Below, piece after piece: positions 32,852-42,027 of a stretch of 64,000 bases of DNA. Origin of the DNA: Candidatus Woesebacteria bacterium GW2011_GWA1_39_21 (lineage in GTDB: Bacteria; Patescibacteriota; Microgenomatia; UBA8517). The translations under genes were made by a program, and so were the position numbers. The notes under the pieces were generated by a model that saw nothing but the letters and a program-made list of their open reading frames with translations, had not been told where the DNA came from and ran no database searches. The stretch covers positions 7,993-71,992 of the forward strand of contig LBWP01000002.1 in the NCBI GenBank assembly GCA_000993685.1, written 5' to 3'. Numbering within the stretch: the first letter of the stretch is position 1; each line of letters opens with the position of its first letter.

Positions 32852-33208
32852 ATGCCTGATGTGGAAAGAGAAAATGTTACTTCTGTACAGCCGTTGGTGA
32901 AAGAACGTCCGACAGACATGGAAATTCCACCGGAGTTGGAGCGTGGAGGAGTAGCTCAGGCGGTACCAAGTCAATTTAAAGGCCAGGTTAACGACGATTT
33001 CGGGAAACCCCTAATTCAGACACCACCAGCTTCGGCGGTAACAATTCAGGTTCCGGCTTCACAACAACAATTGGAAGGCTGGTCAAAAGGCGATCCTGAA
33101 AACGCTCTGACTTGGTTTGCGGTTTTTTGGATTCGATTGATTAAAAAGGCACTTCATTTTAGTTGGCGAATGGTTAAAAAAATTACAGGAGGTGAGCCAA
33201 ATGTATAG
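32852..33208 (+). CDS. Conserved hypothetical protein
   Basis: KGDPENALTWFAVFWIRLIK C-terminal motif; TATAAT 8 nt upstream. Confidence 0.7.
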   Translation: MPDVERENVTSVQPLVKERPTDMEIPPELERGGVAQAVPSQFKGQVNDDFGKPLIQTPPASAVTIQVPASQQQLEGWSKGDPENALTWFAVFWIRLIKKALHFSWRMVKKITGGEPNV

Positions 33209-35525
33209 TGAAGTCGAGGTTGCGATGATATTGTTACTAGTATTCTCTCTTTTTATTTTTGTTGTGGCTGTTGCAGTATTTTTTATTGTTACTCAAATTA
33301 AACACAGAAATCGTGAGGAGGAATCGATTGACTCAGTACTACTGCAAGTTGCAGTTCACAAAAATAACGAAATAAAAATTGATGCGATGGAACAGCTTTT
33401 TTCGGCTTTGTATTCAATCAAGGGGGGTGGTTGGAAGCAAAAATACAAAACACAACCGATATTGTCGTTTGAAATTGTTGCAAAAAAAGAGGACATCAGA
33501 TTTTACGTCTGGACGCCGAAGAAGTTTAAGGACATGATCGAAAAACAAATTCACGGTGCATACCCTGACGCAGAGGTAATAGAAGTTCAGGAATATAACA
33601 TTTTTACAGAAGAGGGGAAGGTTGCCTACAAATGCCTGCAATTGGCACGGGACAATTTTTATCCGATTAAGACTTTTAAGGAGTTGCCAACAGATCCTAT
33701 GTCGGTTATTACTTCAGCACTTGCCAAGATGGGAGATGGTGAAGCGGCAGCAATCCAGATTTTGATTTCTCCTGCTGATAGCACCTGGAGCAAACAGGGA
33801 ACGTCTTTCATCTCCGCTACCAAAAAGCAGGAAGCTGATCCGGAAAAGGCAAAGTTTTCCGTTCCGGCAAAAACACTGGAAGCGGTGGAAAATAAAGTTA
33901 CCAAATCGGGCTTTGATACGTCAGTTCGAATTGTCGTTGTGTCGAAAGATAAAGAATCGGCAAAATCGCATCTTTCGAACATTTCCAGTTCTTTCGCCCA
34001 GTTTAATGGAGATCTTAACTATCTCAAAAGCCGCGTGATCCGACAGAAGGGTGCATTTATTGAGGATTTTATTTACAGGTACCATCCAATGTTCCACGTC
34101 TTCGGCAATAAAAAATCAATTCTGAGTGTTGAGGAATTGGCGTCAATTTATCATTTTCCTAATAAAGCTATTACCACACCGCACATTAAATGGGTTTATT
34201 CGAAAACAGCTCCGGCACCTTCCGCAATTCCCGAATCCGGTATCTATTTGGGAGTAAGTTCTTATCAGGGAACAAAACGTCCAGTCTACATTTCTGATGA
34301 GGATCGGATGCGCCACATGTACATTGTCGGAAAAACCGGTGTCGGGAAGTCGGAGTTTTTAAAAGACCTAGTAATTCAAGATATTAGAAACGGTCAAGGA
34401 GTTTGTTTTATTGATCCGCACGGTGATGCGGTGGAAGATTTGTTGAACCTTATTCCTCCCGAGCGGGCAGAGGACGTAATTTACTTTAATCCTTCGGATT
34501 CCGAGCGGCCGATAGGACTTAACTTATTGGAAGCCAATACGGAAGATCAAAAACATTTTGCAGCCACAGCTGTGATTAATATGATGTACAAGCTTTTTGA
34601 TCCTTACAAAACGGGTATTGTCGGCCCACGTTTCGAACACGCTGTCAGAAATGCAATGCTTACGGCAATGAGTGATGAAGGTTCGACTTTTGTTGAAGTG
34701 ATGCGAATTTTAACCGACTCGCGTTATGTGCAAGAACTTCTTCCAAAAGTTACCGACCCGATAGTGAGGCGGTATTGGACAGATCAAATTGCACAGACCT
34801 CCGACTTTCATAAATCCGAAGTTTTGGATTACATCACCTCAAAATTCGGGCGCTTTGTCACAAACAGAATGATTAGAAATATTATCGGCCAATCTGAATC
34901 GTCTTTCTCGTTGCGTAGAGTTATGGACGAAGGGAAAATTCTATTTATTAATTTATCAAAGGGAACAATCGGTGAGGAAAACTCCAGCTTTTTGGGGCTC
35001 ATTTTGGTTCCAAGAATACTAATGGCGGCGATGAGTAGGACTGATGTTCCAAAGGAACAAAGACGCCCTTTTTATCTTTATGTTGACGAGTTTCAGAATT
35101 TTGCCACGCCGGACTTCGCAGTAATTTTATCCGAGGCGAGAAAATATGCACTGGCACTTTGTGTGGCGAATCAGTTTATCGGGCAAGTTGAGGAAGAAGT
35201 CAAAAATGCGGTTTTTGGTAACGTTGGAACAATTGTTTCTTTCCGAATTGGAACCACCGATGCTAATTATCTGCAGCACGAATTCGCTCCGGTTTTTGCT
35301 GAGGACGACCTATTAAATATCGAGAAATATCACGTCTACATTAAAACGACCGTCAACAACGAACCTGTACCTCCATTTTCAATGGACTTATTCCGTGATA
35401 TGGACAAGTTGAAGGCGATGGAAAATCCTAAAGTTGCCGGAATCATCAAAGAAATGAGCCGTCTTAACTACGGGCGTGACTTAAAACTGGTCGAGGCAGA
35501 AATCGCGCGAAGAGCAAAACTGTAA
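33201..35525 (+). CDS. VirD4/TraG/HerA-like (DUF87) P-loop ATPase
   Basis: RHMYIVGKTGVGKS, IDPHGD, LYVDEFQNF, LSEARKY, ANQ; RBS GGAGGTGA before ATG 33201. Confidence 0.88.
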   Translation: MYSEVEVAMILLLVFSLFIFVVAVAVFFIVTQIKHRNREEESIDSVLLQVAVHKNNEIKIDAMEQLFSALYSIKGGGWKQKYKTQPILSFEIVAKKEDIRFYVWTPKKFKDMIEKQIHGAYPDAEVIEVQEYNIFTEEGKVAYKCLQLARDNFYPIKTFKELPTDPMSVITSALAKMGDGEAAAIQILISPADSTWSKQGTSFISATKKQEADPEKAKFSVPAKTLEAVENKVTKSGFDTSVRIVVVSKDKESAKSHLSNISSSFAQFNGDLNYLKSRVIRQKGAFIEDFIYRYHPMFHVFGNKKSILSVEELASIYHFPNKAITTPHIKWVYSKTAPAPSAIPESGIYLGVSSYQGTKRPVYISDEDRMRHMYIVGKTGVGKSEFLKDLVIQDIRNGQGVCFIDPHGDAVEDLLNLIPPERAEDVIYFNPSDSERPIGLNLLEANTEDQKHFAATAVINMMYKLFDPYKTGIVGPRFEHAVRNAMLTAMSDEGSTFVEVMRILTDSRYVQELLPKVTDPIVRRYWTDQIAQTSDFHKSEVLDYITSKFGRFVTNRMIRNIIGQSESSFSLRRVMDEGKILFINLSKGTIGEENSSFLGLILVPRILMAAMSRTDVPKEQRRPFYLYVDEFQNFATPDFAVILSEARKYALALCVANQFIGQVEEEVKNAVFGNVGTIVSFRIGTTDANYLQHEFAPVFAEDDLLNIEKYHVYIKTTVNNEPVPPFSMDLFRDMDKLKAMENPKVAGIIKEMSRLNYGRDLKLVEAEIARRAKL

Positions 35526-35603
35526 TAGTTTTGTTTAAAAGACGGGTGGATACTTCGTGGAGAATGGGAAATTAGTTAGCTTCTTGGTATAATTACCTCA
35601 CTT

Positions 35604-35679
35604 GGCCTGGTAACTCAGTGGTTAGAGTGCCATTCTTATAAAATGGAAGTCGATGGTTCGAACCCATCCCAGGCCACCA
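35604..35679 (+). tRNA. tRNA-Ile(UAU)
   Basis: Full cloverleaf GGCCTGG/CCAGGCC, D ACTC/GAGT, anticodon stem CCATT/AATGG with loop CT-TAT-AA, T arm GATGG-TTCGAAC-CCATC, A73, CCA; TGGTATAAT promoter upstream. Confidence 0.92.
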
Positions 35680-35709
35680 ATATTCTTACATGTCAAAACG
35701 AGGTTTTGT

Positions 35710-35752
35710 CATAAAGTCGATGTACTTGGTTCGACTCCAAGCGGCTCCACCA
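35710..35752 (+). pseudogene. Orphan tRNA 3' half starting at a CAU anticodon
   Basis: CAT-AA-AGTCG-ATGTA-CTTGG-TTCGACT-CCAAG-CGGCTCC-A-CCA; no matching 5' half seen. Confidence 0.8.
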
Positions 35753-36022
35753 AATTTTGATATGTCGAAGCTCTGCTTCGTCATAAAATCGAATTGGTCG
35801 TATCTATATAATCTTCAAGAAATATATAATGATTTAGTATTACCACCGATCGGATTTTTATTTTTTTGTAATATGGTTGGCATTTTGGGGAGTTTATAAT
35901 TTCTTTCTCTTGCCTAAAAAAATCTCTACAGAAAAATCACCTCGACTTTTGTCATTGACTTTTTATCTCTCACCCTAATTGACTTTTGTCTGTCTCGATT
36001 AATTTACACCAGAGAAGTTTCC

Positions 36023-36394
36023 TTGTTTGTTGTTTTGGTTTGTTTGATTGTACCGCTAGTATTTGTATATAAAAATAAAATATTTGCAAGGCTTGCAAAC
36101 TCAGTTTTTCAAGTAACGTGGATTTATTTTATAGCGAACTTTTTGGAGAACAAAAGTTTGATAATTGTATTATTTGTACTTGCGCACTTGCCAATATTAT
36201 TAGTAAAACACCTGGTAATGTTTTCGAAGTTATCAATATTAATCCTTTCTGTTTTTTATGGAATTGTGCTTATGTTATTGTTTACCAATTTTGATTTTCC
36301 CACAAATATTTTAATGGGAATAGCAATACATTTTTTAGGCTATTTGCTTTTTAGACCAATTGATCAAAGATTCAAGTTCAAAATTATCAACTGA
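36023..36394 (+). CDS. Membrane protein, probably the 3' part of a frameshifted gene starting near 35850
   Basis: Hydrophobic ORF; upstream hydrophobic coding-like frames joined across T-runs. Confidence 0.45.
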   Translation: MFVVLVCLIVPLVFVYKNKIFARLANSVFQVTWIYFIANFLENKSLIIVLFVLAHLPILLVKHLVMFSKLSILILSVFYGIVLMLLFTNFDFPTNILMGIAIHFLGYLLFRPIDQRFKFKIIN

Positions 36395-36435
36395 TAAGAG
36401 GAGTTTGAGGAATTTATAATTTTGTTGATTGTCGA

Positions 36436-37299
36436 TTAAAGTTCAACCAGTTCTTGTTTTTTTCCGGGTTGGGTTATCTCTGCGAGTGTGAGGTAGCGCT
36501 CAGTTGTAGAAAGCCTCTTGTGCCCTGATACTTGTGAGAGAAAGACAAGATCGACACCGGTTTTGAGGTTTTGGACAACGAAAGTTGTTCTTAAATCGTT
36601 AACAGTGTAACCTGGAATTTCTGCTTTCTGAAAGTATCTGTCGATTGCTGCTCTGATATTCCTTATTGCCAGCGGTTTTCCATTTTTGCTCACGAAAATA
36701 TATGGAGAATCTGACTTTGGCCGTTCATTAAGATATTTTTCCAACGTTAGTTTGGCTGACGAATTTAAGGGAATATCTCTTGATGCTTGAGTCGCATATG
36801 CATCAACGTGGACGGTTGCGTTTTTGATGTTTTCTTTCTTAAGCGCGGCAACTTCAGATATCCGTAGCCCGGTTTGGAGAATTAATTCTACGATTGCTGC
36901 AACTCTTGTGTCGTTTCTGACAACGTCGCGCAGAGCACGGTACTCAATTGCTGAAAGAAATTTTGGTGTTGAAGCTTCGATTTTGGGGTGGGAAACTGGG
37001 GAAGAGGGATCGCGTGAGGTGATTTTCTCATCCATGAGAAATCTGAAAAAGGTTTTAACGGCATTCAGTTTTCTTGAAACTGACTTTGGTGTATATTTTT
37101 GGGATAGCAGTTGATCACGAAAACCTTCAACATCGGTGGATTCGACAAGATCAGGCATCACTTTGTTCTTGCCGGTTAAATAGTCGACTAACTGTTCTAA
37201 ATCTGCTCTATAGGCTAGAATTGTTGAAGGCGATCTATTTTTATCTTTTAGGTTTTGGATAAATTTTGGCAGAAGATTTTTTAAGGTATCTTGTGGCAT
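36436..37299 (-). CDS. XerC/XerD-like tyrosine recombinase
   Basis: SPSTILAYRADL, TGLRISE, NDLRTT (HxxR variant), GH..STTERY. Confidence 0.88.
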   Translation of the reverse strand: MPQDTLKNLLPKFIQNLKDKNRSPSTILAYRADLEQLVDYLTGKNKVMPDLVESTDVEGFRDQLLSQKYTPKSVSRKLNAVKTFFRFLMDEKITSRDPSSPVSHPKIEASTPKFLSAIEYRALRDVVRNDTRVAAIVELILQTGLRISEVAALKKENIKNATVHVDAYATQASRDIPLNSSAKLTLEKYLNERPKSDSPYIFVSKNGKPLAIRNIRAAIDRYFQKAEIPGYTVNDLRTTFVVQNLKTGVDLVFLSQVSGHKRLSTTERYLTLAEITQPGKKQELVEL

Positions 37300-37496
37300 A
37301 GGTTAAAATATTGTTATATAGATTTTAATTTTCTGATCTTAAGAAAAATTAGCTATAGTCTACGCTTGTTGTTTGATTATATCTGTATTCTATAGGTTTA
37401 AAAAACATACCCAGGTTCAGTTTGGACAAAAACTGAAATTATTTGGGTATAATATTCGCAATATTAACACAACTTATAGTCTAAGGTCAATATATT

Positions 37497-37913
37497 ATGA
37501 GACATAACCGTTTAAGAAAGCAAGGGGAAAATACGAAGGAAAAGAGGACAAAAGACAGGCTAATGACATTTTTTTTAGTTATCTCGATAATTTTATTTGC
37601 GGGTTCAGTTACTCAGACGTCAAAAAAAATTGGAAAAGTAAATAAAGAGGTTAAGGATCGTGAGGAGCAACTTCGCAATCTTCAGAGCGAAGAAAAGAAG
37701 CTCGAAGAAAAATATCAAGAAGTCACAAGTAACGAATACATGGAAAAACAACTGCGCAACCAACTGAATTTGTCCAAAGAGAACGAGATTACACTGGTTC
37801 TCCCTGAAGACGAATTGTTGCGAAAACTGGTTCCAACGGATGATTTTGAGACGGAAGTGGATTTGACGCCAAATTATAAGAAATGGGCACGGGTCTTCGG
37901 TGTTGAGTTGTGA
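37497..37913 (+). CDS. FtsB/DivIC septum formation initiator
   Basis: TM + coiled coil + YMEKQLRNQLNLSKENE. Confidence 0.8.
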   Translation: MRHNRLRKQGENTKEKRTKDRLMTFFLVISIILFAGSVTQTSKKIGKVNKEVKDREEQLRNLQSEEKKLEEKYQEVTSNEYMEKQLRNQLNLSKENEITLVLPEDELLRKLVPTDDFETEVDLTPNYKKWARVFGVEL

Positions 37914-37916
37914 ATT

Positions 37917-38249
37917 TCAATCAGATTCGTTGGAATCGAAGAAGAAACCCTCTGGCGACAGCTCAAGACCGTTTGCTGTTTCTCTGTTTATTAGCAAACA
38001 TAAATTATTAATCTGCGATGGGCTATATCCTGTAATATCAGCTACCTTCTTACGGTCGAAACGTTTTCCCTCAGTGTTTTCAAACCAACTTGAATAGCAT
38101 CTGCAGAAAGCTTTCCATCTAGTCAGATCCGTTTCTTCCTTCGGCCAGTGAATTCTATACTCGTGCATTTTGTGGATTTTAACGAAGACTTTTGCTTTTG
38201 GATAGAGGACTTTTAAAAATAGACTTAAAAATGCGATTATGGCATGCAA
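37917..38249 (-). CDS. Hypothetical protein with possible HTH
   Basis: RKKVADITGYSPSQINN; start uncertain. Confidence 0.45.
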   Translation of the reverse strand: MHAIIAFLSLFLKVLYPKAKVFVKIHKMHEYRIHWPKEETDLTRWKAFCRCYSSWFENTEGKRFDRKKVADITGYSPSQINNLCLLINRETANGLELSPEGFFFDSNESD

Positions 38250-38296
38250 TGTTCGATCAAATTCCTTCTTGGTTAACGCTTAACCGTAAGTTTAAT

Positions 38297-38575
38297 TTAT
38301 TGTGTTGGAAACAGTCTCTGTCGTGAATGGTAGTATTTTCTGTCGCTCAACTCCCACAAAAGTCCATCAAGTAATCTTGAAGACTCGGGATTTGTATCAG
38401 TAAACGGATTTTTTTCAATGGGAAAAACCGGATTGTCCCTTAACATTTTCAACACCTTTTGTGCCTGAAAGATGGTATTAGTATATGTTGCTTTATCCAA
38501 TTTTTGCGTCTCGAATGCGTCTCCAATTAGATCATGTCTGACGGCTTTCTCTTTTCGTTCGTTGAAGCTGGACAT
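38297..38575 (-). CDS. Hypothetical protein
   Basis: ATG 7 nt after TATAAT; 92 aa. Confidence 0.55.
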   Translation of the reverse strand: MSSFNERKEKAVRHDLIGDAFETQKLDKATYTNTIFQAQKVLKMLRDNPVFPIEKNPFTDTNPESSRLLDGLLWELSDRKYYHSRQRLFPTQ

Positions 38576-38652
38576 GGCCGCAATTATAACATTGGATCAA
38601 AAGCAGAACAAATTATTGGAAAACATTGAAGCGTTATTATTTCCGTTTATTG

Positions 38653-38926
38653 TTGCGGGGTCAGGAGTTGGACCTGATCTGGAAGATTATGCACCTTCTT
38701 GTGTTACCACAAGGGTAGGACTATATCATCATCCCGGCTTTAATCGGGAGTTTGGCGTGTAGTCTCTACGGAGTCCAAAATAAAATATTTTAATTTTAAA
38801 AAGGTTCCCTCGGTATTGTCCTGACATAATCAGGGTGTCCACCGATATAGCCAAATTCTCATTTATAATTACTCATAAATGGGCCCATTTCTACTAGCCT
38901 TCCGTGCAGCCGTACACTACCCCGCA
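38653..38926 (-). tRNA. tRNA-Met(CAU), initiator-like acceptor, split by a group I intron
   Basis: 5' exon 38926-38896 (TGCGGGG..GAAGGCT) and 3' exon 38691-38653 (CATAATCTTC..CCCCGCA-A) join into a cloverleaf; no encoded CCA. Confidence 0.85.
38692..38895 (-). ncRNA. Group I intron (204 nt) between U33 and C34
   Basis: P1 with U-G at the 5' splice site (GGCT/GGCC); ATATCGGTGGA (P), CAATACCGAGGGAA (Q), CGTAGAGACTACACG (R), GATATAGTCC (S); terminal G. Confidence 0.9.
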
Positions 38927-39013
38927 TGTCAACGAACAAACCATATTATATTTACTTTATACTGTGAAAGCAACATGGAATTGTACCTGCGTGAATAGTA
39001 TAATATTACTTGA

Positions 39014-39694
39014 ATGGCAAAATTTGCACAAAAAATAGAAGCCAGAAAATTGAGAAGAAAAGGTCAAAGTATAAAAGGAATTGCAAAATCACTTAATGTT
39101 TCTCCAGCTTCAGTAAGTGAATGGTGTCATGATATCAGTCTTACTGTTAACCAGATAAAGATTTTAGAACTACACTCAAGGGATCCTTCTTATGGTAGAA
39201 GATTAACTTATTCATTAAAACAGAAGCAACAAAGGGTAGAAAAAACAAAAAGGTTAATGGAAGAAGGAAAAAAAGATGTTGGAATTTTAAGTGAACGCGA
39301 ACTTTTTATAGCTGGGATTGCTCTATATTGGGCTGAAGGGTTTAAGAAAGATAGTCAAGCTGGTTTGGCAAACCTTGATCCTTACATGATTAAATTTTTT
39401 ATTAGGTGGTTGAATGAATGTTTTCACTATCATGTTGACAATCTCATTTTGAGAGTAACTGTAAATATAAGTCATAAAGAGAGAATTAACGAGATTGAGG
39501 GATATTGGTCTACGGTTACAGGATTTCCTGTAGATAAATTTCAAAAACCTTTTTTTCAGAAGGTTTTGTGGAAAAAAGTATATGAGAACCCCAATGACTA
39601 TCATGGAATATTAAGAGTAAAAGTTAGGAAAAGCGTCGATTTTTTGAGAAGACTAAATGGTTGTATTGAAGGTTTGAGAATGACTACAGATTAA
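39014..39694 (+). CDS. HTH + LAGLIDADG-like (LYWAEG) putative endonuclease
   Basis: N-terminal HTH (SIKGIAKSLNVSPASVSEW), GIALYWAEG, NLDP.MIKFFIRWL; located between tRNA loci. Confidence 0.65.
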   Translation: MAKFAQKIEARKLRRKGQSIKGIAKSLNVSPASVSEWCHDISLTVNQIKILELHSRDPSYGRRLTYSLKQKQQRVEKTKRLMEEGKKDVGILSERELFIAGIALYWAEGFKKDSQAGLANLDPYMIKFFIRWLNECFHYHVDNLILRVTVNISHKERINEIEGYWSTVTGFPVDKFQKPFFQKVLWKKVYENPNDYHGILRVKVRKSVDFLRRLNGCIEGLRMTTD

Positions 39695-39711
39695 GATAAA
39701 ATACGTGTTAC

Positions 39712-39785
39712 GCCAGGGTGGCTCACTCGGTACCTGCCCGCAATCGCTAAAGCGATAGCCTTTTGCAGACGGGGAGCACAGGATT
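39712..39785 (+). pseudogene. tRNA 5' half with 41-nt palindromic insert in the D-loop
   Basis: GCCAGGG-TG-GCTC-ACTCGGTA[39733-39773]-GAGC-A-CAGGA-TT; acceptor strand pairs with CTCTGGC at 40015-40021. Confidence 0.7.
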
Positions 39786-39798
39786 AATCACAAAAATT

Positions 39799-39835
39799 GC
39801 CAACGTAGCTCAGCGGTAGAGCAATCGTTTCATAA
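39799..39835 (+). pseudogene. tRNA(CAU) 5' half ending at the anticodon loop
   Basis: GCCAACG-TA-GCTC-AGCGGTA-GAGC-A-ATCGT-TT-CAT-AA, then non-tRNA linker. Confidence 0.8.
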
Positions 39836-39846
39836 CACAAACATTT

Positions 39847-39918
39847 GCCAAGGTAGCTCAGTGGAAGAGCACGCGTTTCATAAGCGCGGTGTCGAGAGTT
39901 CGATCCTCTCCCTTGGCA
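39847..39918 (+). tRNA. tRNA-Met(CAU), elongator-type
   Basis: GCCAAGG/CCTTGGC, CGCGT-TTCATAA-GCGCG, GAGAG-TTCGATC-CTCTC, A73; followed by CAA, not CCA. Confidence 0.9.
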
Positions 39919-39950
39919 CAACAATTTTGAGACATATCAGAATTTTCTGC

Positions 39951-40025
39951 CATAAACCCGCGGTCGTGGGAGAGTAACCAATTTGTCTTAGGCGGGCGAA
40001 TTGTCGATTCCCACCTCTGGCGCCA
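39951..40025 (+). pseudogene. tRNA(CAU) 3' half with hairpin insert in the T-loop
   Basis: CAT-AA-ACCCG-CGGTC-GTGGG-A[~32 nt]TCGATT-CCCAC-CTCTGGC-G-CCA. Confidence 0.7.
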
Positions 40026-40090
40026 GTTTTATCTCCCAAAATGCTTCAAGCCATTTCTCTTTAGTAATTTATTAAGATATAATTCGCTGC

Positions 40091-40363
40091 ATGAAAGCCA
40101 TTAAACAGTTTGTTGAGGAATTAGTAAAGAATAAGGAGAGAGTACTTAAAAGAGAAATTTCAGATATGGAGGCACGGGTTATTCTGGCTGAAAGCGGGAA
40201 ATTTCCTGAGATGAATGAAGAGCTAAGACTAAGAGCAATAGCTTCGAGCGCCGAACATAGGAACAAAGGAACGCTTTTGGGAAGACAAAAATATATTTTA
40301 GATGGAGAAAAGCAGTTAAGGGCAATTATTTTGGGAAAAGAAAGAGATCGAGAGGGGGATTAA
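40091..40363 (+). CDS. Hypothetical helical protein
   Basis: ATG 7 nt after TATAAT; 90 aa. Confidence 0.55.
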   Translation: MKAIKQFVEELVKNKERVLKREISDMEARVILAESGKFPEMNEELRLRAIASSAEHRNKGTLLGRQKYILDGEKQLRAIILGKERDREGD

Positions 40364-40438
40364 TTACGAAAAGAGTATCGCAGCTTAATTGTCTTTCCAT
40401 TTCTTTACTGGTATAATAATTCTCACAATTTAACAAAA

Positions 40439-40709
40439 GCTGCGAAGGGATTGATTGGGATCCTGGAGCTGAATAGGCATTAGTCTATTACGGAGGCGAA
40501 ACCGTAAAAGTCAGCAGCAATTGTCGCGCAAGCGGAGATTGTATCAAATAAGGTTTATTCATTGATATAACTCTTCTTCCGAAGAGTTTTTTAATGGATC
40601 GACAAAACAAGGTGGCAACGTCTTTTAGCTGTTAGCAGTTGGAGTTTAGAAATTAGTTAGAAGGCCCTTGTTTGATCATCATATTTTGGTGGTTAAGCAA
40701 GGGCTTTTT
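40439..40709 (+). promoter_or_regulatory. Trp T-box riboswitch with ultrashort Stem I and intrinsic terminator
   Basis: GA-motif GCTGCGAAGGGAT..ATCCTGGAGC with TGG (40456-40458) in the apical loop; T-box AACAAGG-TGGCAAC (40613-40619) pairs with CCTTGTT; terminator GCCCTTGTTTGATCA..TGGTTAAGCAAGGGC-TTTTT; promoter TTGTCT..TGGTATAAT. Confidence 0.85.
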
Positions 40710-40711
40710 AT

Positions 40712-40921
40712 ATGAAAGAAAATTGTAAAACGTGTGGAGGAAAAGGTGTTATAGATATTGCACAAACTTGGCATGAACTAACGCTATGGTGTCCAAAGTG
40801 CGAAAGGGAAAAATTCGAACATGCGAGTGAGGTTTATATAAAAAAATATGGAATTGACAATTCGAAATCATTGATAAGTTTGGGAAATGAGATGGACGTA
40901 CAAAACAAAATGGAAGATTGA
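40712..40921 (+). CDS. Small zinc-ribbon protein
   Basis: CKTCGGKG..CPKC. Confidence 0.6.
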   Translation: MKENCKTCGGKGVIDIAQTWHELTLWCPKCEREKFEHASEVYIKKYGIDNSKSLISLGNEMDVQNKMED

Positions 40922-40971
40922 TAAATTGGTTTTATAAAATTTATATGTTTATAGTAAGATAGTAATCAATT

Positions 40972-42027
40972 ATGAAAAAACGAATATTATCAGGAATTAG
41001 AGCCACCGGCAGGCTTCATTTGGGAAATTATCTTGGAATGATTAAAGGAATGCTTACTCTTCAAGATGATCCCGAGTATGAAGTTTTCTTCATGGTCGCA
41101 GATTTGCACGCACTAACGACTCCGTTTGATCCGAAAACGTTGGGACCAAACTCCAGAGACGTTGTTTTGGACTATCTTGGCGCAGGTCTTGATCCGGAAA
41201 AAGCGTCGGTTTTTATCCAATCGCACGTTCGAGAACACGTCGAACTTTCCTATCTGTTTTCGACTGAAGTGACAATTGCGAGGTTGGGTCACTTACCAAC
41301 CTACAAAGACAAGCTTAAACAGTTTCCGGAAAATAATACCTTGGCGCTTTTGTACTACCCGGTTTTAATGGCTGCAGATATTTTGCTTTATAAAACGGAA
41401 CTTCTTCCGGTCGGGGATGACCAGCTGCCACATCTTGAGATCTCTCGCGAAATTGCAAGAAAGTTTAATGAAAAATACGGGATGGATTTCCCGGAGCCGG
41501 GACAAATTAAAACAGAAGGACATTACGTTCCATCGCTAACGGGAGAAGGAAAGATGAGTAAGTCGGTAGAAGGGAGTTACATTAATCTGACTGACGATTT
41601 GACGACAATTAAGGAAAAGTTGGCAATAGTTCCGACAGACTCTGGAAAAGGTAAAATCGAAACTCAAAACTCAAATGTCAAAAGTCAAAATGACAACTCA
41701 AAACTCAAAATTTATAAATCTGGAGGAATCGAGTCGAAGGGGATATCTGCATTAATGGCACTGGTAGACTTATTTGAAGGTGAAGAAAAAAGAAAAGAAT
41801 ATGAAGAGAAATATTTGGGAGAGGGTGTTCGGTACGGTAATTTGAAAAATGAACTAGCTGAAGAAATTTATAAAGAACTTGAGCCGATTCAAGCGCGAAG
41901 GAAAAAGTACGAAGACGATCCGGATTTGGTAGAGAAAATCTTAAAAGACGGTGCCGAAAAAGCTCGAAAAATCGCCAAGGAAACAGCCAGAAGATTTGGA
42001 AGGAAAACAGCTTCCTTTTGTTATTAA
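40972..42027 (+). CDS. trpS: Tryptophanyl-tRNA synthetase
   Basis: SGIRATGRLHLGNY, YPVLMAADIL, PVGDDQ, KMSKS. Confidence 0.96.
   Translation: MKKRILSGIRATGRLHLGNYLGMIKGMLTLQDDPEYEVFFMVADLHALTTPFDPKTLGPNSRDVVLDYLGAGLDPEKASVFIQSHVREHVELSYLFSTEVTIARLGHLPTYKDKLKQFPENNTLALLYYPVLMAADILLYKTELLPVGDDQLPHLEISREIARKFNEKYGMDFPEPGQIKTEGHYVPSLTGEGKMSKSVEGSYINLTDDLTTIKEKLAIVPTDSGKGKIETQNSNVKSQNDNSKLKIYKSGGIESKGISALMALVDLFEGEEKRKEYEEKYLGEGVRYGNLKNELAEEIYKELEPIQARRKKYEDDPDLVEKILKDGAEKARKIAKETARRFGRKTASFCY

Follow-up and report, generated by a model that had tools for sequence, protein, structure and literature searches.

Integron attC sites and the attP site of the CTX phage are recombination sites that work as folded single strands, with variable stems and a short conserved core, and the element described here would be alike in these respects. 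It differs from attC in that its site is symmetric and it inserts at many genomic sites; moreover, its Xer-like neighbour in the present genome scores 47 bits against a cut-off of 265 (TIGR02249) and is thus not an integron integrase. From a MITE it differs in its outer ends, which do not covary as terminal inverted repeats would (34/56 complementary versus 28.1 expected). There is also a likeness to REPINs, which the accessible text of two sources presents as tiny non-autonomous pairs of inverted palindromes that form hairpins when single-stranded and depend on an enzyme, RAYT, acting in trans (PMC3116915; PMC6006769). However, the two hairpins of our element share one AT without a spacer, its stems vary whereas REPINs have a conserved 16-mer (accessible part of PMC3116915), it occurs in few copies per genome, it can carry a whole tRNA gene and it splits essential genes. 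Furthermore, no RAYT flanked by the element's repeat was found among 49 Y1-transposase loci of 20 genomes.

Likeness of another kind is offered by the tRNA-dependent lysogeny of actinobacteriophages, in which, according to the accessible part of PMC10865867, the host tRNA is broken and a tRNA matching it in isotype is carried, just as all nine host genes rebuilt here match the cargo (9/9). The element departs from the account given there in having no phage or integrase gene, a core of 2 bp instead of about 10 bp and a length of 115-150 bp, and also in nesting repeatedly and having a free empty form. An ordinary att scar likewise leaves a partial tRNA gene near a complete one, the two copies bracketing an element of 9-23 kb in the portion of PMC9897764 that is available, whereas the halves reported here belong to different alleles, are found 10-30 bp away from the intact gene and, in relatives, occur on both sides of it. 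By analogy, the element would thus be REPIN-like in form and tRNA-dependent-lysogeny-like in logic, and yet appears to part from each at a defining point, since a cognate RAYT was not found, phage and integrase gene are lacking and the core measures only 2 bp. A description of nested tRNA cassettes was not found in the literature searched, which consisted mostly of papers outside subscription, without supplements.

We consider it about 75% probable that the displaced tRNA 3' half and the short stub behind a tRNA-Ile(UAU) gene are remains of older tRNA-Ile(UAU) genes, split at the anticodon AT by small non-autonomous double-hairpin elements that bear a tRNA of the same anticodon, the view that these elements move being part of that estimate. 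What the locus contributes is the corrected identity of the half, the minimal empty element, a target rule and a negative survey for the enzyme.

The tRNA-Ile(UAU) locus

The window is the whole stretch of 64,000 nucleotides analysed, from Candidatus Woesebacteria bacterium GW2011_GWA1_39_21 (genome G000; 1.04 Mb, 92% complete). Its tRNA-Ile(UAU) locus contains the following features.

35588..35593, +: -10-like hexamer, 10 nt upstream of the intact tRNA-Ile(UAU), recognised from the sequence; presumed promoter
35604..35679, +: intact tRNA-Ile(UAU) (ARAGORN, Rfam), putative cargo of the youngest cassette, whose left arm is missing
35680..35689, +: putative cassette 1 right arm of the long stem closing the tRNA-bearing loop; matches the arm that pairs with a left arm in genome G086
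35690..35712, +: hairpin 1, the short empty segment of cassette 1 from inner AT to outer AT, with a T.T mismatch (model R2, E=6.7e-4; training sequence)
35711..35752, +: displaced 3' half, belonging to an older tRNA-Ile(UAU) allele, from the anticodon AT to CCA at 35752 (38/39 to locus L488, 36/39 to L008)
35753..35761, +: putative cassette 2 right arm, whose cargo was the older allele; same flank behind the intact allele in G031 and in contigs of sequencing runs
35762..35784, +: hairpin 2, the short segment of cassette 2 (model R2, E=1e-5; training sequence)
35783..35792, +: stub of 10 nt that probably represents the 3' half of the oldest tRNA-Ile(UAU); intact UAU genes (L005, L042, L488) show identical letters after their anticodon, a match too short to serve as sole proof

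The two hairpins are spaced 72 bp apart, and each has a 5-bp stem of differing sequence, a 3-nt loop and, as the initial annotation had observed, a T.T mismatch at the same place (35693.35709 and 35765.35781); their DNA folding z-scores are -2.7 (hairpin 1) and -6.5 (hairpin 2). The 3' half is complete, with T arm, acceptor strand and CCA, in agreement with that annotation, although of the stack of 3' halves that it described one full half stands and the second piece amounts to the stub only. Its remark that the acceptor strand of the half does not pair with the 5' strand of the intact gene is borne out by three mismatches (against 35604-35679), and so is its view that this is no simple att duplication: the 3' half is present once in the genome in a search with up to 5 mismatches, and no matching full tRNA elsewhere brackets an element. 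The matching 5' half, for which a search had been proposed, was not found in the 92%-complete genome. A contig from an independent public run (X6) equals 35511-36000 with 0 differences; none of the sequencing runs listed as containing the sequence was of RNA. Genome-wide, the hairpin motif with a stem of at least 5 occurs three times, always at tRNA-Ile genes, and with a stem of at least 4 six times versus 1-5 in ten shuffles; hairpin model R2 at E < 0.001 returns only the three tRNA-Ile hairpins, all of which are training sequences.

The hairpins that precede the 3' half and the stub are likely the right ends of a double-hairpin element, and the window probably holds a twice-nested stack with its left side deleted, a nest that is reconstructed from relatives, left arms and 5' halves being absent in the window. 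In genome G086 (locus L299), a complete cassette with the same right arm encloses the window's intact tRNA-Ile(UAU), the first 73 nt being identical. Cassette 2 would have split the oldest tRNA-Ile(UAU) gene, of which the stub remains, and in a second round cassette 1 would have split the cargo of cassette 2; the 5' halves would then have been lost by deletion between near-identical repeats, leaving the 3' stack only. With the 5' halves missing and the tRNA following the -10 box directly, the simplest explanation is a deletion between 5' halves that were near-identical. The hexamer is likely the original tRNA promoter, which the promoterless cassettes would need, and a similar hexamer and spacer stand upstream of two 5' halves in G002, a genome of the same genus.

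Other readings of the locus were tried and rejected. The 3' end of a group I intron was dropped, as a scan of 33000-42000 gave no Rfam match at the locus, the intron call in the same scan lying away from it at 38697-38905; a split tRNA is disfavoured by the complementary 5' half not being found in the genome; and a tmRNA end reaches an Rfam E=2.6 only, the full tmRNA being on another contig (C9, with a long predicted tag of 29 residues). A 69-aa ORF (35690-35899) with an apparent peptide repeat has no Pfam match, the repeat being the two hairpins.

About 650 bp downstream lies an Xer-like tyrosine recombinase gene (36436-37299, -), which is below all NCBIfam cut-offs and in which, by eye, N presumably replaces the first catalytic H. 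Genes like it adjoin tRNA-Ile(UAU) in G066, G061 and G237.

Identity of the displaced 3' half

The initial annotation took the halves for remnants of CAU tRNAs, possibly the TilS-dependent Ile2, displaced by the UAU tRNA. It can be said for this reading that the letters CAT stand ahead of both 3' pieces and that no tilS (PF01171) was detected in G000 (92% complete) or in five single-contig relatives, controls being positive 14/14. The suggested alignment against Met and Ile2, however, matches the half to neither CAU class but to Ile(UAU) alleles: the closest among 221 distinct intact tRNAs of related loci are tRNA-Ile(UAU) genes with 38/39 and 36/39 identical positions, against 30 for the best GAU genes and 23/39 for the best of 39 CAU tRNAs. 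In a DNA search of 61 genomes, the 3' half was found as part of an intact tRNA-Ile(UAU) in G031, where it is followed by this same flank and by a hairpin of like type, and G153 presents the same arrangement, the displaced allele being cassette cargo in both. A close allele occurs in G237. In contigs of runs X5 and X6, which show a single difference to 35711-35758, the sequence runs on upstream into a UAU 5' half.

The pieces are thus remains of displaced tRNA genes, as had been claimed, but of UAU genes. 'CAT' consists of the last C of the hairpin end followed by the anticodon AT, and the 'CAU anticodon' is an artefact of the junction; the element end reads GTT or GCT in other copies, the C belonging to that end. 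Since the half is a UAU allele and tilS was not found, UAU took the place of UAU, and no Ile2-to-UAU switch is recorded at the locus. Contradicted as it is by intact UAU genes bearing the same half, the idea of CAU remnants retains in our judgement next to no probability. Among the tRNAs of the genome are Ile(GAU) and Ile(UAU), together with two CAU tRNAs, one being the initiator-type Met with its intron and the other read as elongator Met. There is no call in G000 for tRNAs Phe, Gly-GCC, Gly-UCC, Pro-UGG, Val-UAC and Ala-UGC, which may be unassembled.

Architecture, cargo and nesting in relatives

In relatives the unit consists of two head-to-head hairpins with three ATs, outer, inner and outer (AT/hairpin/AT/hairpin/AT), with the consensus AT/RRC-stemA-loop-stemA'-GAY/AT/RTC-stemB-loop-stemB'-GYY/AT. 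A script found 59 distinct elements, of which three were later judged false picks; distinctness is by sequence, and orthologous sites and metagenome duplicates may count twice. Loci L044-L163, which came from a loose pattern scan of a contig collection (at least 120 matches, scattered over unrelated taxa), are excluded from all counts. A complete tRNA is present in one loop of 20/59 elements, which are 115-150 bp long, the cargo being Ile-GAU in 12, Ile-UAU in 7 and Met-CAU in 1. Removal of the element together with one AT rebuilt a tRNA recognised by ARAGORN in 9/20, and all nine share the anticodon and strand of the cargo (9/9); in the other 11/20 the host tRNA was not rebuilt on account of second inserts, decay or contig ends. 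Empty elements make up the remaining 39/59, with lengths of 37-54 bp (42 bp in 16 of them). Among the matches inspected, no ORF was found within a loop.

Clean single insertions are seen in G097, G107, G127 and others, and the split outer gene in G107 and G127 and the window's half have an acceptor stem in common. The nest in G002 comprises two 5' halves, the intact tRNA and two 3' halves, and an acceptor stem is re-formed in it by the outer pair and again by the inner pair; further complete or nested cassettes occur at L010 (doubly nested, with halves pairing across the nest), L039, L164, L195, L199, L201 and L291. Host and cargo halves are often different alleles, and an allele carried as cargo in one genome can have a near-identical counterpart, even in a different family, that persists as a dead half. 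A pattern for the 3' junction was matched in 12/125 family genomes compared with 4 for a reversed control; of its 13 matches seven are real (G000 included), one was read and rejected and five were judged from the letters to be chance.

Displaced tRNA-Ile(GAU) 5' halves of differing alleles (L182, L189, L193, L207, L234) have in common changed bases at 4-5 nt ahead of the AT core, which lies outside what the element model explains. Another cassette type at Ile tRNAs (L009, L019, L021, L042) has its junctions at least 1 base further 3' in the anticodon loop.

Hairpin model R2, a scan that had been suggested at the outset, gives matches in 45/139 genomes of the order (E <= 0.05), in 6/150 genomes drawn from the class (E <= 0.03) and in 5/150 genomes of the phylum (E <= 0.02), G000 being included each time; a few weak matches were false on inspection, and the counts are without a shuffled-genome control. 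The motif is rare outside the order. One common hairpin is found in 23 metagenome loci, many of them duplicates, and three hairpin patterns gave 0 matches in viral contigs.

Covariation and proposed movement

The hairpin, supposed from the window to be a conserved covarying unit, behaves as one over 69 hairpins: 98% of cells are paired and the covariation score is 0.531 against 0.178 +/- 0.013 after shuffling (0/500 as high), far above slid controls. Two positions away from the core, a Watson-Crick pair occurs in only 1/59 on each side. These covariation and mismatch counts come from matches selected by motif or model, with the alignment fitted to the model, and are biased towards it. The first base of an outer end pairs with its own inner partner in 85/90 rows, most elements being counted once per strand, while complementarity between the two outer ends is 34/56 versus 28.1 expected; that the outer ends pair with their inner partners and not with each other argues against ordinary terminal inverted repeats. 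When closed into a circle, 56/56 elements fold into a dumbbell with the junction AT paired with the inner AT, a result partly built into the finder.

The kept mismatch beside the core, along with the covarying stems, suggests a folded single-stranded intermediate. In the model that we propose, the mobile form would be a circle of single-stranded DNA with the fold of a dumbbell, the junction strand pairing with the inner palindrome over a 4-bp helix between two mismatches. One strand would then be exchanged at AT by an enzyme supplied in trans, an action like that of IS200/IS605- and RAYT-type HUH enzymes on single strands that are folded. Were both strands of the dumbbell cut, the target would be broken and no insertion would result, whereas exchange of one strand gives exactly the product with three ATs. 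There is also a precedent in the IS200/IS605 elements, which use single-stranded circles with subterminal hairpins according to the accessible part of PMC6006769. On account of this product and this precedent, single-strand transfer in trans is the favoured prediction, to which we give roughly even odds. A circle or excision joint was not seen in the contigs (as opposed to the reads) of the sequencing runs.

An empty insertion into the sole gene for a tRNA would be lethal, and hence the copies kept there would be those bearing a tRNA, co-oriented with the host and read from its promoter. Every new cassette would split the cargo of its predecessor, producing nested halves. A more ambitious proposal is that the single-stranded dumbbell of about 42 nt is a self-standing mobile unit with structure-defined ends, which captured whole tRNA genes and became an integrase-free cassette system, overwriting, time and again, essential Ile and Met tRNA genes in these ultra-small bacteria and moving alleles between distant lineages via an undescribed kind of single-strand recombinase; we regard this as tentative and would sooner bet against it.

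Empty copies and target sites

Empty copies are located in tRNA debris, in intergenic regions, on start codons, in frame within genes and in other repeats, in either orientation relative to genes. Many of them lie outside tRNAs at YY/AT/RR sites; at 28 empty sites A occurs with 64% at each of positions +1 and +2 after AT against about 25% at 839 control sites, 11/39 empty copies having been left out of this analysis as tRNA debris, tandem or doubtful. The UAU, GAU and CAU anticodon loops are similar to this YY/AT/RR target, a likeness that would explain why the genes for these tRNAs are hit. A preference for hairpin loops as targets was considered and rejected (6/28 compared with 220/839 controls; folding energy p=0.06).

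In G091 the element sits on the start codon of a serine recombinase gene, and homologues present an apparent empty site. A gene that looks YqeY-like harbours a perfect 45-bp element in frame (L348:2739-2785), and its product is apparently no longer for it.

Search for an enzyme and alternative explanations

No cognate enzyme for the element was found. With model R2, no element was detected beside the 49 Y1-transposase loci (20 genomes), a survey covering part of the element-bearing genomes in which the Y1 loci that were read carry other palindromes; nor was any detected beside nine tyrosine recombinase loci. Forty small GIY-YIG loci (40/52 were scanned, the remaining 12 having long proteins) were without the element, except that tRNA-Met cassettes lie some 400 bp away from one of the GIY-YIG genes. 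Large serine recombinases were rejected as the cognate enzyme, for they form a separate element and the copies on their start codons are secondary insertions.

Small GIY-YIG genes stand directly upstream of an intact tRNA in L430, L460, L461 and L465, and between a 5' half and the intact tRNA in L430 (His) and L460 (Val), with ends that differ from those of the double-hairpin element. Large serine recombinase genes are abundant (L285, L305-L334; in G000 at C2:6-1370, with a broken copy at C2:100186-100368), and many run head-on into tRNA or tmRNA 3' ends and are enclosed by long inverted repeats, of which the tRNA's last bases form part.

The same element could instead be moved as double-stranded DNA, with AT serving a serine recombinase as its 2-bp crossover, or with a DDE transposase moving it as a MITE that duplicates 2 bp of target. 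A palindromic core of 2 bp is in keeping with serine recombinases, homologues of the large type are present in 92/125 family genomes, the genes inspected often point into tRNA 3' ends, and two of them bear the element on their start codon. However, relatives of one such recombinase with 80-95% identity lack the element, which marks the start-codon copy as a secondary insertion like those on the start codons of other genes; moreover, the outer ends hardly covary, unlike terminal inverted repeats (34/56 against 28.1 expected), and the stem sequences are free to vary with pairing kept. We therefore regard double-strand movement as unlikely. Lower still is the probability that we assign to shrunken phages or islands of tRNA-dependent integration, of which only the tRNA and the att arms are left, although the Xer-like recombinase about 650 bp downstream, with similar genes flanking tRNA-Ile(UAU) in G066, G061 and G237, would suit it and the accessible part of PMC10865867 sets out the same logic for actinobacteriophages. 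The 2 bp shared here compare poorly with the approximately 10 bp given in that part of PMC10865867, the cassettes of 115-150 bp hold no ORF, the empty 42-bp forms lie away from tRNAs and the three hairpin patterns have no viral-contig match.

One might also suppose that the hairpins act in RNA, the long stem isolating the cargo tRNA for processing, and that spread occurs via an RNA intermediate, given that in a predicted fold (L039) the long stem stacks on the acceptor stem of the cargo and that cargo is co-oriented with the host. But empty copies lie in both orientations with respect to genes and even inside unrelated repeats, host and cargo halves are often different alleles, and Rfam calls no intron at the locus, yet does so at 38697-38905, so that we hold this explanation to be very improbable.

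Other cassettes in the genome and implications

If tRNA-bearing double-hairpin elements do split and replace tRNA genes, then cassettes of 120-150 bp replace single-copy essential tRNA genes wholesale in these reduced genomes, and, as near-identical alleles occur as cargo or dead half across families, such tRNA genes may be poor markers of descent. Fragments of tRNA genes can mislead annotation, as the false CAU did here. The empty form would be a very small mobile element with ends conserved in structure and not in sequence and a 6-bp target preference; it is a ready synthetic substrate in the hunt for the enzyme and possibly for a new single-strand DNA insertion activity.

The window also holds a second instance of the cassette, at tRNA-Met.

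39712..39833, +: two displaced 5' halves of tRNA-Met-like genes, the first (39712-39788) decayed and with a hairpin insert (39733-39773), the second (39799-39833) ending in the anticodon
39832..39953, +: complete 120-bp cassette with an intact tRNA-Met(CAU) (39847-39919) and a short hairpin (39934-39953); locus L190
39952..40025, +: displaced tRNA-Met 3' half, whose T loop carries a different hairpin insert (39970-40003), read from the sequence

The acceptor strand of this 3' half pairs with the 5' half at 39712, and the same cassette type occurs at the tRNA-Ile(GAU) gene on contig C27 of G000.

A second type of hairpin insert interrupts tRNAs at the T loop, stacks of 3' ends being left behind; it is seen in the window at 39970-40003, in G000 behind tRNA-Val on C1 and behind tRNA-Lys on C2, and in L010, L025 and L177. 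A group I intron (Rfam RF00028, 75 bits) lies within the initiator-type tRNA-Met(CAU) gene at 38652-38926 (-), and the gene is intron-less in relatives G086 and G021. Between the two Met tRNA genes lies a gene for a 226-aa HTH protein of no named family (39014-39694, +), whose Atlas neighbours are mostly hypothetical proteins of CPR taxa; genes resembling it adjoin tRNAs in L300 and L482.
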